NCBI GenBank assembly: GCA_964493715.1
Contig: CAZBPC010000028.1
Span: forward strand, 3,726 to 34,689
Origin: an uncultured archaeon
Lineage (GTDB): Archaea; Asgardarchaeota; Lokiarchaeia; Sigyniarchaeales; SOKP01
Direction of reading: 5' to 3'
DNA: 30,964 nt
Positions 16,868 to 30,964 of the stretch are shown here, in pieces; the first letter of the stretch is position 1; every line of letters begins with the position of its first letter. The position numbers were made by a program, and so were the translations under genes. Below the pieces are notes generated by a model, which saw only the letters and a list, made by a program, of their open reading frames with translations, did no database searches and was not told where the DNA came from.

Positions 16868-18313
16868 TTGCCAATTGGTATTAAAAGCTATGGTGCTTAT
16901 TTACCTAAATACATGCTACCCAGGGAACTCATAGCGAAAGCATGGGACTTTCCGATAGTTCCGGGGACTAAAGCAGTAGCTATGGAGGATGAGGACAGCT
17001 TGACAATGTCAGTAGAAGCAGGACTCGATTGCTTAGAGGGAATTGACCCAAAGACAGTTGATGGAATATTTTTTGCTTCAACAACTCAAGTCTATACTGA
17101 GAAAGATTCAGCCTCTTTAATCGCTACTATTCTCGATATGAGAGGAGATATCATTACCGCAGATTTTACGGACTCAACTAAAGCTGGAACAACAGCTTTA
17201 ACTAGAGCTGTAGATGCGATTAAAGCCAATAAGGATATCAAGAGTATTTTGGTAGTTGCAGCTGATACGAGAAAACCCGAACCCTCAACAATGTGGGAGT
17301 TTGGATTTGCAGATGGTGCTGCCGCTTTACTCATAGCGGATGAAGAAAATATCCCGATCTCGATCGATGATTACTATTCAGTTTCAGCGAACGTGACTGG
17401 ACCATGGAAAAGAGCAGACAAGGATGAGTTTATCAGAACTTTTGAAGTAAAGATGGATGCAAAATTTTACGTGGAAAGCATCACCAAAGTTATGTCTGAA
17501 GTCTTGAAACGTAATAATTTAAACCCTTCCACAGACATCCAAATTGCTGCATATTATTATAATAACCCCAGAATGCATAGCACGATATCCAAGATGATGA
17601 AATTTGGCCAAGGAGTAGCTCAGAACAGCTTGTTCTTTCAAGTAGGTGATATGGGAACGCCAATGCCTTTCATGCTTCTCATTGCTAGCTTGCGAAGACC
17701 TAAACAAGATGACAAGATCATAATGGCCGGTTTTGGAGATGGTGCTGATGCTATTCTCATGCAGGTTCGAGATAAAGATGGTGTCAGGGATATCGGTAAA
17801 GGAAGAATGGGTTTTGTCGGTCACCAAAAATCGATGACCCTTCTAAATAATTACAACAAGTTCATCGAGTTTAAGGAATTGCTTGAGAAGGACAGATATA
17901 CGCGAAAAAGTTCAGCTGTCATTATCTGGCGTGATACTCCTTCAGTTTACAAGTGGTATGGTGTAAAATGCAAAAGTTGTGGAACCGTGCAATATCCTAA
18001 CCTTTCACGAGCTTGTTCCGTATGTAGAGCTGATGATCAATTAGAACCCATTAAACTTGCAAAGAAAGGAGAACTCTTTACATTTACCCTTGATCACTTG
18101 GTTGGTGGAGCTTATCTTAATACGCCCGTCCCACGATGCGTTATAGACCTTGAAGGCGGTGGAAGAGTGTTAGTTAACATGACTGAAATCGAGAACCCTG
18201 AGGAAAATGTCAAGATTGGAATGAAACTCGAGATGACCTTCAGAAAGGAACACGAAGGTGCTGAATTTAAAAATTATTATTGGAAATGTCGACCCGTGAG
18301 GGGGAGACCTTAA
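16868..18313 (+). CDS. HMG-CoA synthase/KASIII-like protein fused to a DUF35 (Zn-ribbon + OB-fold) domain
   Basis: GIKSYGAYLP, DEDSLTM, DGAAALLI, VGDMG, GFGDGADA; C-terminal CKSCG..YP...CSVC and OB fold (FTFT, DLEGGGR, IGMKLEMTFR, YYWK). TTG start after GAGGT. Confidence 0.9.
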   Translation: MPIGIKSYGAYLPKYMLPRELIAKAWDFPIVPGTKAVAMEDEDSLTMSVEAGLDCLEGIDPKTVDGIFFASTTQVYTEKDSASLIATILDMRGDIITADFTDSTKAGTTALTRAVDAIKANKDIKSILVVAADTRKPEPSTMWEFGFADGAAALLIADEENIPISIDDYYSVSANVTGPWKRADKDEFIRTFEVKMDAKFYVESITKVMSEVLKRNNLNPSTDIQIAAYYYNNPRMHSTISKMMKFGQGVAQNSLFFQVGDMGTPMPFMLLIASLRRPKQDDKIIMAGFGDGADAILMQVRDKDGVRDIGKGRMGFVGHQKSMTLLNNYNKFIEFKELLEKDRYTRKSSAVIIWRDTPSVYKWYGVKCKSCGTVQYPNLSRACSVCRADDQLEPIKLAKKGELFTFTLDHLVGGAYLNTPVPRCVIDLEGGGRVLVNMTEIENPEENVKIGMKLEMTFRKEHEGAEFKNYYWKCRPVRGRP

Positions 18314-18314
18314 A

Positions 18315-18320
18315 GGAGGT
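18315..18320 (+). promoter_or_regulatory. Shine-Dalgarno GGAGGT of the thiolase gene
   Basis: GGAGGT 7 nt upstream of ATG 18328 and just after the upstream stop codon, consistent with an operon. Confidence 0.8.
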
Positions 18321-18327
18321 AAAAAAA

Positions 18328-19606
18328 ATGGTTAGACATGGAATTAAAGATAAAGTCGCAATTATCGGTTGCGACATGACAAAATATGGAGAACGATGGG
18401 ATAAGTCACAATACGACCTGCTCTTCGAAGCATTTCAAAGCGCGACGAAGGATGCTGGAATTAAGAAGGATGAGGTGGATGCGAGCTGGGTTGGGATATT
18501 TTACTACTTTACTGGACTATCAGGTGCGATGGTAGAAGATATCCTAAAGTTGGATGGTAAACCCGCTACTCGCGTGGAAAATTACTGCGCTTCGGGCATG
18601 GATGCGTTCCGTAATGCATGCTTTGCCGTTGCTTCTGGTGCATATGACGTTGTCCTCGCCTGTGGAGTGGAGAAACAATATTAACATTTTGTTAATATGC
18701 TCTAGACTCATGGACGAGGGCGGTAGTGGTTTACCCGGATTTACCCAATTCGGACATCCGCTATATCCGACGCCTTCCGCGCCAGCAATGTTTTCGATGG
18801 CGGCCACAAGATGCTTTCACGAGTTCGGATGGACGAAGGAAGATCTTGCCCGAGTCGCGGTAAAAAACCATGATAATGGGTCTCATCATCCAAAAGCACA
18901 TTTTCGAAGCCCAATTTCTTTAGAAGCTGCGATGAAAGCCCCCATGATTGCGGACCCTCTCGGTAGATTCGACTGCTGCGCAAAAATTTAATCACTTAGA
19001 TAAAATTACGCAATGTCAGACGGAGCTGCCGCGTTGATCCTCACCAGACCAGACCTCGCCGAAAGTTATGCCCATGCGGATGACTACGTGCTGGTAAAAG
19101 CCAATGCAATTTCGGCTCACACCAATTTTCCGTGGTACGTGCCACCTGGAGGGCCTGGAGCGGATTTCACTGCATTTCCATCAACGGTAAAAGCGGCGAA
19201 ATACGCCTATCAAGAAGCAGGAATTACCAATCCGCGGAAAGAAATCGATGCTGCAGAAGTCCATGACTGTTTTACGATCACAGTTGATTACATTGCGTAA
19301 TTAACGGTTAATGAACTTATAAACTGTCAGGACCTGCAATTCTGCGACCGAGGGAAAGCAGCTGAAGAACTTAAGAACGGAACGTTCAACTGGGATGGCG
19401 AAACCGCCGTGAATCCATCGGGAGGACTAAAAAGTTTTGGTCATCCTATTGGAAGTACTGGCTGTCGGATGCTCACGGAAATCACCAAGCAAATCCAAGG
19501 ACGTGCTGAGGGAAGGCAAGTGCCCGATGCTAAGATCGGCTTATGCCATAACCTTGGCGGTGCGTTTAGCGTCTGTGCCACGACAATATTAGGTCAACGA
19601 GATTAA
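18328..19606 (+). CDS. SCP2-type thiolase (acetyl-CoA acyltransferase) split by three BHB introns; exons 18328-18674, 18706-18983, 19014-19281, 19312-19606; 395 aa spliced
   Basis: Exons sum to 1188 nt (395 aa + stop). Motifs ENYCASG, GVEK/LMD, KNH.NG..HPKAHF, FDCCA/MSDGAAA, EVHDCFTIT/ELI, NPSGGL..FGHPIG.TG and HNLGG are all intact after splicing. Confidence 0.9.
18675..18705 (+). other. Putative BHB intron 1 (31 nt) in thiolase mRNA
   Basis: ACAATATTAACATTTTGTTAATATGCTCTAG. Central helix GGAG(18669-72)/CTCT(18700-03), bulges AAA and AGA, stem ATATTAAC/GTTAATAT, loop ATTTT. Removal gives GAG AAA CTC ATG (EKLM) and repairs a frameshift. Confidence 0.85.
18984..19013 (+). other. Putative BHB intron 2 (30 nt) in thiolase mRNA
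   Basis: AAATTTAATCACTTAGATAAAATTACGCAA. Central helix GCGC(18978-81)/ACGC(19008-11) with one C-A mismatch, bulges AAA and AAT, stem AATTTaATC/GATaAAATT, loop ACTTA. Removal gives TGC GCA ATG TCA GAC (CAMSD). Confidence 0.78.
19282..19311 (+). other. Putative BHB intron 3 (30 nt) in thiolase mRNA
   Basis: AGTTGATTACATTGCGTAATTAACGGTTAA. Central helix GATC(19276-79)/GGTT(19306-09), bulges ACA and AAT, stem GTTGATTAC/GTAATTAAC, loop ATTGC. Removal gives ATC ACT GAA CTT (HDCFTITEL). Confidence 0.87.
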
Positions 19607-19630
19607 ATTTCTTTTTTTCTATTTTTTTTA
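19607..19630 (+). terminator. Oligo-T archaeal terminator candidate after thiolase
   Basis: ATTTCTTTTTTTCTATTTTTTTTA immediately after the stop codon. Confidence 0.5.
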
Positions 19631-19823
19631 ATGGAATCTACCGGTAAAAATAAGAATTTACGGGCTAAATTCATTGTAAGCTTTATATTCTATACAGAGG
19701 ATAAATATTTATATTTGTTTATATAAGATAAAGTTAAGAAATTCAACTTCAGAGGTAAAAATTATTATTGAACACGAGAAGGAAAACATTGGAAAGCCAA
19801 AAAAAGCGGGTTTAGTTTTAACC

Positions 19824-20174
19824 GTGATTGGGGCGATTTGGATGTTCAGATCATTGGTGTTTATGGTCCCTGACATTTACAAAATTGCTTTAATGGTAGG
19901 GATTATAATTTCAATAATTGGGGGGATCATGGTGATAAAAGGTAAAAAACCTGGAAGGTTAATTTCTTTAATAGGTGGAATTGTAAATCCCATTCTCATT
20001 ATAATGGTTGTATACAACCCTGCTCTTTGGTTCTATGACTTTTGGTACGGTTTACTGAATCACTTCATATTTATGTTTTTGACAATTTATGGATTCGCTA
20101 TTTTTGGGATTTCTTTTTTGTTGTTATTGATCGGTGGGATTCTTAGCTTTAAGATAGAAGAATTACAGATATGA
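19824..20174 (+). CDS. Small multi-pass membrane protein; true start may be TTG 19768 with a frameshift in the A7 run at 19799-19805
   Basis: Hydrophobic 116-aa ORF with repeated I.GGI motifs; SD-like AGAGGT at 19751 precedes an out-of-frame TTG at 19768. Confidence 0.65.
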   Translation: MIGAIWMFRSLVFMVPDIYKIALMVGIIISIIGGIMVIKGKKPGRLISLIGGIVNPILIIMVVYNPALWFYDFWYGLLNHFIFMFLTIYGFAIFGISFLLLLIGGILSFKIEELQI

Positions 20175-21143: not shown

Positions 21144-21665
21144 TTATTTTTCTCGCATGTGAGAGATTATCATTCTCGTTAATTCTTCAAAGGATTTTTC
21201 CACATTTTCGCCAGTTTTGCTGGAACATTCAATATAGTTATTCAGACCCAATGAATCTGCAAGCCGTTTTGCTTCGTTGATAGAAACTTCTCTAAATTGT
21301 TCTAAATCTAATTTACCTCCTAGTAATAAGATCGGGAAATTTACGTTAGTTTCATTTATAATTGATAACCAGTCATGAACATGGGAAAAGGAGGAATAAT
21401 CAGTAATATCATACATTAAAATTCCCCCCATTGCTCCTTGGATATATTGGGGAAATAAAGTTCGAAATCGTTCTTCACCACCAAAATCCCAGATCATGAG
21501 ATTAACACGCTTTTCATCGACTTCGATGATTTTAGTTTCAAATTCCACTCCTATAGTCATTTGAGAATCAGGGAGGAATATATCTTTAACAAATCGTTTA
21601 TTTAAAGTTGTCTTACCACAACCTGCGTCACCGAAAATAACGATTTTAAAAATCAAGTCATACAT
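21144..21665 (-). CDS. Rab-like small GTPase (173 aa), paralogue A
   Basis: FKIVIFGDAGCGKTT, TIGVEF, WDFGGEERFR, GGKLD, ECSSKTGENV; start moved to ATG 21665 to match the paralogue. Confidence 0.93.
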   Translation of the reverse strand: MYDLIFKIVIFGDAGCGKTTLNKRFVKDIFLPDSQMTIGVEFETKIIEVDEKRVNLMIWDFGGEERFRTLFPQYIQGAMGGILMYDITDYSSFSHVHDWLSIINETNVNFPILLLGGKLDLEQFREVSINEAKRLADSLGLNNYIECSSKTGENVEKSFEELTRMIISHMREK

Positions 21666-22177
21666 TTTAATCAAATTTAATAATTTTTTCTGGTTATTAA
21701 TCTGAATTACTTGGTAATATATCGCTTCATCAAGAAATCAACGACTAAGTAAAAATTTAATTCTTGATCTCGTGTTTAAATTTTTAAGTGTTCGATCTTG
21801 ATGGGATATAGTAAAAATGGAAAATATCTACAAATATTTAAACTTTCTCCAAATAATTTATCAATATCTAATTTGTATGAGCTAAATTGATGAAAAGTAA
21901 TATTCAAATCAATCTATTTAGAGCAATTTTTCCCTTTAAAGCTAAATTTTAAGAAAAAAAAGGCATGAAATTTTTATTTAGTATAAACAATGATTCCAAC
22001 CACAAAGACAGCTATATTATTAAGAAAAAATTTCCAAACGGAATTATGTCTTTTGGATATGCTGCTCATATTGATATAGCAATATCAGTTATTTTACCAA
22101 GATTGAGAACAACCAATCAGATTTCATAATTCAATTATTAAAAGCAAAAAAAAAGAATTTAACAAATAGCCATTTGA

Positions 22178-23414: not shown

Positions 23415-23936
23415 TCAGGACTCTCTCATTTTATTAACCATAATTCTCGTTAAATCTTCAAACGATTTTTCCACATTTTCACCCGTTTTGCTGGAACATT
23501 CAACATATTTATTTAAACCCATAGAGTTTGCAAGTTGCTTTCCCTCGTTAAAAGAAATTTCTCTCTTTTCATTTAAATCTATTTTACCTCCTAGTAATAA
23601 GATGGGAAAGCGCTCTCTTTCGCCATTTATAACTGATAACCAATCAATGGTATGAGAAAAAGAAGAGTAATCCGTGATATCACACATTAAAATTCCCCCC
23701 ATGGCTCCATGAATATATTGGGGAAAGATAAATCGAAATCGTTCTTCACCTCCAAAGTCCCAAATCATTAACTTAACTCGCATATCATCGATCTTGATGA
23801 TTTTAGTTTCAAATTCCACTCCTATAGTCATTTGAGAATCCGGTATAAATAAGTCGGTCACAAAACGTTTAGTTAAAGTAGTCTTACCTGAACCTGCGTC
23901 GCCAAAAATGACGGTTTTGAAAATTGCGTCATACAT
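23415..23936 (-). CDS. Rab-like small GTPase (173 aa), paralogue B
   Basis: FKTVIFGDAGSGKTT, TIGVEF, WDFGGEERFR, GGKID, ECSSKTGENV. Confidence 0.93.
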   Translation of the reverse strand: MYDAIFKTVIFGDAGSGKTTLTKRFVTDLFIPDSQMTIGVEFETKIIKIDDMRVKLMIWDFGGEERFRFIFPQYIHGAMGGILMCDITDYSSFSHTIDWLSVINGERERFPILLLGGKIDLNEKREISFNEGKQLANSMGLNKYVECSSKTGENVEKSFEDLTRIMVNKMRES

Positions 23937-24249: not shown

Positions 24250-24768
24250 TTATCTTCTTAAATCAATAATTCTACGAGTTAACATGCTAATCGCATCATC
24301 AACTATAACAATATCAGTTGGAGACGCTTCAATATAGATTCCTCCCTCATTTTCTGCAAATCCACGAGCCTTTTCTCTAAGATGTGTTTTGTCGACTTCT
24401 TTAAGCTTATCAATATTATTTCCAATCAATAAAAAAGGTCTAAAACCATTAACCTGTATTATTTCTGTAAAAAAATTTCTAACTTCAGCAAATGTTTCCT
24501 CCTTGGTCAAATCGAAAATTAAAATTATTCCTGCAGCTCCTTTGTAAAACGTGCTACGAATGAGCTCAAATCGTTTTTGACTTCCAATGTCCCATAGCGA
24601 AAGATTAGCAATTTCACTGAGTTGGAACTCAACATCTTTAGTTAAAATGTCGACTCCAACTGTCAACTTGTAGTTTGCAGCAAACCGATTTTTAACGATT
24701 TGTTGGACCAACCGATTTTTAACTAAATCTCTTCCAATTAGTATTATTTTAAGTTTAAAATGAGACAT
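24250..24768 (-). CDS. Rab-like protein with degenerate nucleotide-binding motifs (pseudo-GTPase candidate)
   Basis: Likely start MSHFKLKIILIG at 24768. Retains YKLTVGVDILTK, WDIGSQKRF, FYKGAAG and FDLT, but G1 is GRDLVKNR, G4 is NNID and G5 is EASP. Confidence 0.85.
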   Translation of the reverse strand: MSHFKLKIILIGRDLVKNRLVQQIVKNRFAANYKLTVGVDILTKDVEFQLSEIANLSLWDIGSQKRFELIRSTFYKGAAGIILIFDLTKEETFAEVRNFFTEIIQVNGFRPFLLIGNNIDKLKEVDKTHLREKARGFAENEGGIYIEASPTDIVIVDDAISMLTRRIIDLRR

Positions 24769-24980
24769 GATTACAGATTGAATAACCCAAGTAATGATAA
24801 GAAAATCTAATCTTATAAATAATTTCATTAAATTAATAGCATTAATATCTTAGCATCAACTTCAACTAATTCAAATGAGGTTTGATACTTCGAACATTAA
24901 GACTATAAATATGCTTAGCCCTATTTATGCATAAATTAATTTGTAACAATGCCAATCATAAAAATTATTGTGGTTAAAAA

Positions 24981-29748: not shown

Positions 29749-30964
29749 ATGTTTGTCGAATACTTTTACTATCTCAAAGATAGATTGCCCGTATCCCTAA
29801 CGGAATACATGACCCTAATCGAAGCATTAGACAAGGGACTCATCCATAACATGGTAGAATTCTATTACATCTCTCGCTCACTCCTCTGCAAGAATGAACA
29901 CCATTTTGACATCTATGACATCGCTTTTGCGAACTTTTTTAAAGACGCATCGCTCAAATTTCCCGATGAGATTAAACAACAAATCTGGGATTGGCTAGAT
30001 AAAAAACTCGACCCACAAGAATTACCCGATAATTTCCAGCAATTCATGAGTGAAATCTTCGACCTTGAAGAACTCCAAAAACAACTCGATGAATTGCTCA
30101 AAAGACAAGACGAAGACCATGATGGCGGCGATCACTGGATCGGAACTCAAGGCGAATCGCGGTTTGGCCATTCTGGACAAAATCCAATGGGCATGAAAAT
30201 CGGTGGGTCGGCTGGGATGCGAATGGCTATCCAAATCGCCCAAAAAAGAATCTTTGCCGATTACAGAAAAGATGTCGTCTTAGATACCCGCCAAATCAAG
30301 GTCGCACTCAAGCGCCTCAAAAAACTTGAAGAAATCGGCAAGCAAGATGAATTAAACATCGATAAAACCATCGATCAAACGGCTAAGAATGGCGGAGATA
30401 TTGATCTAATTTTCGAAAAAAAGAGAAAGAATAACGTGAAGCTGATATTGCTAATGGATGTCGGTGGCTCCATGACTCCTTATGCTCACCTCGTAAACCT
30501 CCTATTTTCTGCCGCAAACAACATGTCGCACTGGAAAAAGTTTGAGCACTTTTATTTTCACAACTGCCTTTATGAGACTCTCTATTTCAACGCACAGAGA
30601 AATCCGGAAGAATCCATTCCATTTGAAGAATTTTTGAAAAAATATAACAGTAAATATAAAGTAGTCGTGGTGGGCGACGCCGCAATAATTTAATCGAATT
30701 CCGATTAAGTTGTGAGGGCAAGTTGGGAGCTCACCGAAAGATATGGGAGTATCTACTATTATCATCGGAACGAATTGCCCGGTGCGTATTATATACGCGA
30801 ACTTGCGAACCATTTCAAGAATAATGTCGTATGGCTTAACCCAGAAATCATACGGTTGGAGTGGGTGCCGTGGACGCGGAAGATAATTTCAAGCATCATC
30901 CCGATGTTCCACCTTACAGTGGAAGGGATTGAAGAAGCCATGGATTTTCTACGGAAGGGCGGTA
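29749..30964 (+). CDS. VWA-domain (CoxE-like) partner of MoxR, split by one BHB intron; exons 29749-30686 and 30717->30964 (runs off the window end)
   Basis: HDGGDHWIGT.G.S.FGH.G, LLMDVGGSM and YFHNCLY. After intron removal the frame reads VGDAAMASWELTERYGSIYY...VWLNPE...MFHLTVEGIEEAMDFLRKGG, open to the window end. Confidence 0.9.
30687..30716 (+). other. Putative BHB intron 4 (30 nt) in VWA mRNA
   Basis: AATTTAATCGAATTCCGATTAAGTTGTGAG. Central helix CGCA(30681-84)/TGTG(30711-14), bulges ATA and AGG, 9-bp stem ATTTAATCG/CGATTAAGT, loop AATTC, outer GC/GC pairs. Removal gives GCA ATG GCA (GDAAMA). Confidence 0.88.

Follow-up and report, generated by a model that had tools for sequence, protein, structure and literature searches.

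BHB Introns in Messenger RNAs and Related Systems

Work on the intron of the cbf5 gene reportedly includes that of Watanabe in 2002 and of Yoshinari in 2006. In the later study of Yokobori 2009, the BHB intron of crenarchaeal cbf5 pre-mRNA measures 16-44 bp, according to the available part of that article (PMC2738675). The inserts described below resemble it as it appears in that part: they are short, lie in coding sequence, adopt a relaxed BHB and are too short to encode anything. They also share its tie to a hetero-oligomeric EndA, its occurrence in frame-shifting or frame-preserving form and its gain or loss among related species (PMC2738675). Unlike the cbf5 intron, they are found in an Asgard archaeon, thus in another phylum, in at least eight genes per genome and with up to three introns per gene (four sites across the genus). 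Further differences from cbf5 are the near-identical introns found in diverged genes and, in one RNA contig, what reads most simply as an exon circle.

As late as 2020, cbf5 was described as the sole coding example, according to the accessible portion of PMC7714728. The same portion reports that the HVO_1309 mRNA of Haloferax volcanii carries a BHB intron in its 5' UTR, which was confirmed as an EndA substrate both in vivo and in vitro (PMC7714728). The present case is comparable in that an mRNA would be the substrate of EndA, a role predicted here from the sequence and from one RNA contig. However, the HVO_1309 intron lies in an untranslated leader and is the single case in its genome, whereas the thiolase introns lie in the reading frame.

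A preprint of 2026 deals, in the part of it that is available, with Asgard tRNA introns only, with Jordiarchaeia and Atabeyarchaeia as focal classes, and leaves protein genes untreated. The thiolase introns recall the tRNA introns described in that part by their motif, their enzymes, their circular products and their repeated gains without a known route. Their host is an mRNA instead, in which exon-exon pairing must replace the body of the tRNA.

In eukaryotes, IRE1/RtcB splicing of the XBP1/HAC1 mRNA likewise removes a short frame-shifting intron enzymatically, with an RtcB-type ligation in animals. Both systems rely on non-spliceosomal enzymatic removal of a short frame-shifting mRNA intron, but the IRE1 system uses another endonuclease and a twin stem-loop motif, is regulated by stress and acts on non-homologous introns.

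No BHB intron in an Asgard protein gene was found in the literature searched, most subscription journals being outside the scope of this search. The mechanism is already known from cbf5; nothing in the same literature matched its scale, its lineage or the exon circle. The thiolase insert very probably belongs to the archaeal BHB introns.

The Thiolase Gene and Its Setting

The window, i.e., the whole stretch of 30,964 nucleotides that was analysed, comes from an Asgard assembly of 3.68 Mb with 31% G+C, hereafter G000. The thiolase gene occupies positions 18328-19606 of the plus strand and begins with an ATG at 18328, ahead of which lies a GGAGG ribosome-binding site. The frame of exon 1 (18328+3n) terminates at TAA 18682-18684, after ...ACGVEKQY, and the continuation LMDEGGSG... 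is read in frame 18554+3n, i.e., +1 relative to exon 1.

Four open pieces, all on the plus strand, can be recognized: exon 1 (18328..18674; Thiolase_N 1-114; 78-97% identical to its orthologs), exon 2 (18706..18983; Thiolase_N 155-197, also delimited by the ortholog alignment), exon 3 (19014..19281, 268 nt; Thiolase_C_1 14-50) and exon 4, which carries the stop codon (19312..19606; Thiolase_C_1 52-143). Since these pieces follow each other in the order of the Pfam profiles, the locus reads as one thiolase gene cut three times, by intron 1 (18675..18705, 31 nt), intron 2 (18984..19013, 30 nt, with two in-frame stops) and intron 3 (19282..19311, 30 nt). The CDS of G000 spliced at the predicted joints measures 1188 nt and has no internal stop.

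Three stop-bearing inserts in a single gene could mean that this thiolase is dead or dying, the inserts being disruptive and no full-length thiolase being made, and G000 does hold 5 further matches to exon 1 (6 in total). However, the gene has no other lesions, and comparison with G022 and G008 gives dN/dS values of 0.018 and 0.024, respectively; because of these values, it is considered as maintained under purifying selection, not decaying. Loss of function is also opposed by compensatory changes that preserve the stems, by the presence of similar inserts in the genes of RtcB, proteasome alpha, an aminoacyl-tRNA synthetase and NadE, and by the fact that the inserts are single-copy and do not form a repeat family (see below). 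A dead or dying gene is thus an unlikely explanation.

The upstream neighbour of the thiolase gene (16868-18313, plus strand) encodes a protein of 481 aa, in which a condensing-enzyme-like fold is fused to a zinc-ribbon/OB tail of the DUF35 type. Three genes of Ras-family small GTPases (Pfam Ras, E 1e-28 to 1e-48) are located on the minus strand at 21144-21674, 23415-23936 and 24250-24828, all inside 4 kb, and two of them adjoin genes with a metallo-beta-lactamase fold. ARAGORN found zero tRNA in the window, and no Rfam model matched the region 18200-19700 with an E of 1 or below.

Insert Boundaries Deduced from Relatives

The genus comprises 41 genomes and a thiolase ortholog was found in 26 of them; the resulting alignment has 27 rows, 26 with data at intron 1. 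The insert there is exactly 31 nt long, follows ...GAGAA and is present in two rows (G000 and G016), the other 24 being uninterrupted. Rows without inserts correspond to open frames of roughly 390-430 aa. Inserts occupy four sites across the genus. Site A, near 18614, holds 29 nt in G016 and G046 (2 of 26 rows). Site B is that of intron 1. Site C, that of intron 2, holds 30, 31 and 30 nt in G000, G024a and G007, respectively (3 of 26 rows). Site D, that of intron 3, holds 30 nt in G000 and G022 (2 of 25 rows). At site C, two species thus have 30 nt and another one has 31 nt, a one-base variation that is tolerable if the insert is removed, not if it is translated through.

Some of this variation is found within single assemblies or samples. 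For example, G024 carries two near-identical thiolase alleles (contigs C283 and C416; loci L071 and L046), with and without the site-C insert, which is a presence/absence polymorphism inside the population or the bin. In the same way, a contig in the DNA runs X4 and X5 departs from the window after 18614 into 30+ different nt; it represents a strain variant whose insert occupies the position of the site-A intron of G016 and G046.

Metagenome contigs L120-L122 also contain the 31-nt insert of intron 1, and L119 contains its beginning; five independent assemblies show it at the same length. An artefact of assembly or sequencing, e.g., a miscounted 31st base, might be suspected because the source is a metagenome-assembled genome and because X4 and X5 each have one listed piece ending inside the hairpin, at 18684. 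Nevertheless, the same 31 nt were recovered from G016 and from L120-L122, which come from other assemblies, and X4 and X5 show DNA depth across intron 1 with no indel. The probability of an artefact is therefore negligible.

These comparisons bear on several claims of the first-pass annotation. It had described a 31-nt frame-shifting insert with exon 2 in another frame, as is now borne out by the sequence and by the 24 insert-free ortholog rows out of 26. The cuts that it placed after 18674 and 18705, restoring GVEK-LMD, match both the BHB rule and the sequence of the intron-less orthologs; removal of 18676-18706 would yield an identical product. The assembly error at the 31st base, which it had named as the finding that would speak against its reading, is contradicted by the identical length in G016 and L120-L122. 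Its argument from the frame is only partly valid: the shift does exclude read-through of the stop codon, but it does not exclude a +1 frameshift, as no stop interrupts that frame within the insert.

A programmed +1 frameshift before TAA 18682 would add ~10 extra residues between GVEK and LMD. The +1 frame is indeed open through the whole of intron 1 (ORF 18554-18991), and introns of cbf5 were formerly mistaken for frameshifts, as the available part of PMC2738675 indicates. On the other hand, a 10-codon open stretch would arise by chance in roughly 4 cases out of 10 (an estimate from base composition), no shifty site was seen at intron 1 and the insert is missing in 24 of the 26 ortholog rows. 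It should be emphasized that the frameshift is disfavoured not by the frame argument but because of introns 2 and 3, which are in frame and contain stops that a frameshift cannot pass, and because the RNA appears to be cut at BHB sites of the same transcript (the joint seen in X23, see below). Frameshifting is accordingly a very unlikely explanation, and the removal of an intron from the mRNA is the reading retained in what follows.

The BHB Motif and the Exon-Exon Clamp

At intron 1 (plus strand), the 5' strand of helix H, GGAG (18669..18672), pairs with CTCT (18700-18703), all four pairs being formed (G.U, G-C, A-U and G-C). The 5' bulge AAA (18673..18675) and the 3' bulge AGA (18704..18706) have their predicted cuts after 18674 and 18705, respectively. 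Between them, the intron hairpin h' (18676..18699) has 10 bp, a bulged A18677 and a loop at 18687-18689. A full H of 4 pairs with a stem of at least 7 bp occurs by chance genome-wide at 0.00033 per register, 17 registers having been tested, and H of at least 3 pairs with a stem of at least 8 bp at 0.00115 per register. Intron 2 has a BHB with 3 of the 4 H pairs and an 8-bp stem, and the canonical BHB of intron 3 is its minimum-energy fold.

All nine insert copies at the four thiolase sites possess a BHB at the register that restores the conserved protein, with 3 or 4 pairs formed in the 4-bp helix and an intron hairpin of 5-10 bp. Their bulges count 3 nt each, the usual sequences being AAA or ACA for the 5' bulge and AAT or AGA for the 3' bulge. 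Cuts after the second bulge nucleotide restore AFR|NAC, GVEK|LMD, DCCA|MSDG and FTIT|ELI, and the predicted spliced product equals that of the intron-less orthologs at 9 of 9 copies. Compensatory changes in H and in the stem were found at sites A and C, as well as in the intron of the VWA gene described below.

The motif of intron 1 competes with other folds. Its BHB form has an energy of -9.6 to -11.0 kcal/mol versus -12.4 kcal/mol for the minimum-energy fold (a gap of 1.4-2.8); the pairs of H have a probability of ~0.33 in the ensemble, in which the BHB form represents about one third. In the strict form with 3-nt bulges, U18668 is unpaired. Taken with its exon flanks, the 66-nt region 18655-18720 has a z of -3.63, and none of 200 shuffles was equally stable.

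The first-pass annotation had considered the outer helix as weak, consisting of GAG/CTC after an unpaired T. What is found instead, in the minimum-energy fold of the 66-nt region, is a discontinuous exon-exon clamp (helix h) of 4+2+4 pairs, in which 18655-60 and 18665-68 of exon 1 (plus strand) pair with 18706-09 and 18712-18 of exon 2. This clamp has 10 of 10 pairs in the five intron-bearing alleles (G000, G016, L120, L121 and L122) and 7-9 of 10 in the 24 intron-less rows; since the 23-mer used to retrieve L120-L122 predetermines the 5' strand of the clamp, only their 3' strand counts as free evidence. The clamp may play the part of the tRNA body, holding the two halves of the mRNA together for ligation. 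The annotation had also assigned the extra nucleotide of the insert to one bulged A in the intron stem: A18677 is bulged in the stem, but it has no special meaning, inserts of this kind being 29, 30, 31 or 33 nt long.

A short stop-containing hairpin inserted in a coding sequence also recalls translational bypassing, i.e., ribosome hopping of the kind known from phage T4 gene 60 and the byps elements of yeast mitochondria. In such systems, matching take-off and landing codons flank the gap and a stop directly follows the take-off codon. Around intron 1 (18670-75 versus 18701-06), no matching codons exist, the insert being preceded by AAA or GAG and followed by AGA ahead of CTC, and the stop comes three codons past the junction. 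As the RNA cut sites favour splicing too, bypassing is extremely unlikely, and splicing of a BHB intron remains the preferred explanation.

RNA Evidence

Parts of the thiolase gene occur in 24 runs, including two metatranscriptomes (X23 and X24); the DNA runs X4 and X5, neither of them marked as the source, were examined as well. X23 provides one contig of 231 nt with a depth of 9.5, whose first 200 letters are 19082-19281 and whose last 31 are 19014-19044. The back-joint from 19281 to 19014 is unambiguous, and its two ends fall exactly where a 5' cut of intron 3 and a 3' cut of intron 2 are predicted. The rule of a cut after the second bulge nucleotide is thus matched by this joint at the sites of introns 2 and 3.

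In its simplest reading, the joint results from exon 3 (268 nt) being closed into a circle. Such a circle is expected if both ends of an internal exon are left ligatable by the endonuclease. DNA is uninterrupted through introns 2 and 3 in X4 and X5 (19004-19270, 19262-19495 and 19004-19282), and no 19281-19014 joint is listed for these two runs. The RNA record consists of one assembled contig of one run, which lies over the sites of introns 2 and 3 and not over intron 1, and Logan contigs can misjoin. No contig of the thiolase gene was found in X24, and the coverage in X23 is confined to exon 3; across these two runs, none of the introns yielded an exon-exon junction.

Splicing Enzymes and Proposed Pathway

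Two genes of the EndA family (PF01974) exceed the Pfam cut-off in G000. The ORF of 207 aa on contig C5 has the triad of Tyr, His and Lys at the expected motif places, and the ORF of 205 aa on contig C58 lacks the His. Asgard EndA is an (alpha-beta)2-type enzyme and has a broad specificity, according to the available part of PMC5829648. Judged on its sequence, the gene pair of G000 fits this alpha/beta enzyme as presented there (PMC5829648).

RtcB is also present (484 bits), and its own gene is split: profile positions 1-47 and 48-426 are parted by a 29-nt insert (contig C2, 12136-12164, minus strand; locus L023). This insert has a perfect BHB, with TTGG/CCAA as H, bulges ATA and AGA and a stem of 8-9 bp, and its removal gives ...GGVGY|DINCGVR. 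As the gene is itself interrupted, the supply of the ligase would depend on the splicing of its own mRNA. Among the 41 relatives, an uninterrupted RtcB match was found in 33, and this split only in G000 and G001. The two introns differ at 1 of 29 positions and the flanking third codon positions differ often. In G026, a single 459-aa open frame (contig C209, 4484-5596) matches RtcB at profile positions 1-303 and 373-426, ~70 positions being replaced or missing.

Taken together, the 31 nt at 18675-18705 are, with high probability, an archaeal intron of the BHB type located in the mRNA of a protein gene. The 4-bp helix H would arise by pairing between the 3' end of exon 1 and that of the intron, the latter folding as a hairpin and the exons being joined by the 10-pair clamp. 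The heteromeric EndA would then cut both 3-nt bulges, after 18674 and after 18705, and RtcB would ligate the exon ends into the single frame ...GVEK|LMD.... Introns 2 and 3 would follow the same pathway, and internal exons, which would have ligatable ends on both sides, could also circularise. For intron 1, we infer its cleavage, the enzymes acting on it and the formation of the mature mRNA.

Other Introns in the Genome

Besides the thiolase gene, like inserts affect genes with diverse functions. At least ten introns in at least eight genes of G000, all of 29-31 nt, are confirmed by homology, i.e., by the continuity of a Pfam profile or of orthologs across a BHB insert of 29-31 nt. In addition to the three thiolase introns, confirmed by the ortholog alignment, and to that of RtcB, they interrupt the genes of proteasome alpha (C4, about 20107-20139; profile 1-98 / 101-188; found by blastn against G008), a class-I aminoacyl-tRNA synthetase (C44, 26027-26056; 4-46 / 48-135), the NAD synthase NadE (C39, 8748-8777; 6-143 / 144-242), an AMP-binding enzyme (C19, 23103-23132; 91-208 / 222-312) and a thiolase paralog (C120, 4198-4228; 1-48 / 51-143). 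On the protein, the intron of this paralog falls at the position of intron 3 (site D). The last one is located in the window, in a VWA_CoxE-like gene that extends on the plus strand from 29749 to the window end: it spans 30 nt (30687-30716), with 4 of 4 pairs in H and a 9-bp stem, and the product across it reads ...GDAA[M]ASWEL. Among the 14 aligned orthologs of this gene, five carry an insert of 30 or 33 nt with compensatory changes and nine carry none. Two further introns, in a hydrolase gene (C2:119236) and a thiolase-like gene (C145:299), are probable.

Searched against the genome by blastn-short, 12 inserts gave the self match and 11 short chance matches (18-22 nt, E at least 0.33). A repeated mobile insertion of the MITE or IS type was rejected, the inserts being single-copy in G000.

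A scan of the whole genome for BHB geometry combined with ORF fusion did not exceed a control with mirror-repeat fake pairing at any threshold. For this reason, the motif alone is weakly predictive in a genome with 31% G+C. Because of the noise from adjacent same-strand genes and from alternative frames, the scan gives no intron count. When 21 of its loci were compared with Pfam, five showed a split domain, three were inconclusive, four were false and nine were neighbouring genes or uninformative. The three undecided loci are that of the VWA gene, confirmed afterwards by its orthologs, the hydrolase at C2:119236 and the thiolase-like gene at C145:299. The UPPS, ABC, URO-D and FeoB loci were rejected, an uninterrupted ORF being present in another frame. 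A blastn comparison of 400 kb of G008 with G000 (~224 kb aligned) revealed 20 gaps of at least 15 nt, among which there was one clean coding insert, that of proteasome alpha, which is too little for a rate.

In G000, which is rated 100% complete, ARAGORN found only 27 tRNAs, 12 of them with an intron of 11-39 nt, and none for Met, Asp, Glu, Phe, Tyr, Trp, His, Cys, Asn or Gln. Many tRNA genes of this genome probably have several interruptions each, too many for recognition.

Distribution and Spread of the Introns

The introns are patchy among species, and near-identical copies are found in diverged genes. For example, G000 and G016 belong to different major clades of the exon tree; their thiolase exons are 75% identical (892/1185), with saturated synonymous sites, and their site-B introns are identical at 29 of 31 positions. 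Furthermore, the four metagenome contigs found with the upstream 23-mer all carry the same intron 1, in at least 2 further exon backgrounds. Variation of this intron among the five alleles is confined to 18686-18688, in the loop.

Whether intron 1 has recently spread between lineages, perhaps via short-patch gene conversion, is about an even question. The alternative to spread is a very strong constraint on the whole intron, against which site C argues. Co-conversion of the flanks was also looked for: there are two flank sites at which G016 departs from G009, its nearest relative, and agrees with G000, but one of them is within H and they are too few to decide.

More generally, the genus may be the seat of a live spread of enzymatically spliced mini-introns. 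They would travel from species to species with a few flanking bases, settle at clamp-ready coding sites, enter core genes, including that of the ligase, and release exon circles. We put forward this picture tentatively, as it falls slightly short of being probable.

Implications

Gene callers will report RtcB, proteasome alpha, the aminoacyl-tRNA synthetase, NadE and the thiolase as fragments or pseudogenes. Such miscalls distort both the metabolic and the completeness estimates made for Asgard genomes.

These introns also raise the question of how the unspliced mRNA is kept away from ribosomes. For genes that carry several BHB introns, the splicing process offers two features that can be tested, namely the exon-exon clamp and the exon circle. 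Furthermore, thanks to the presence/absence polymorphism among 41 congeneric genomes and to the two alleles of a single assembly, the gain, loss and spread of introns can be observed in the archaea nearest to eukaryotes. If the live spread proposed here is true, the genus would offer, in the closest relatives of eukaryotes, a prokaryotic model of how split genes originate and are tolerated without a nucleus.
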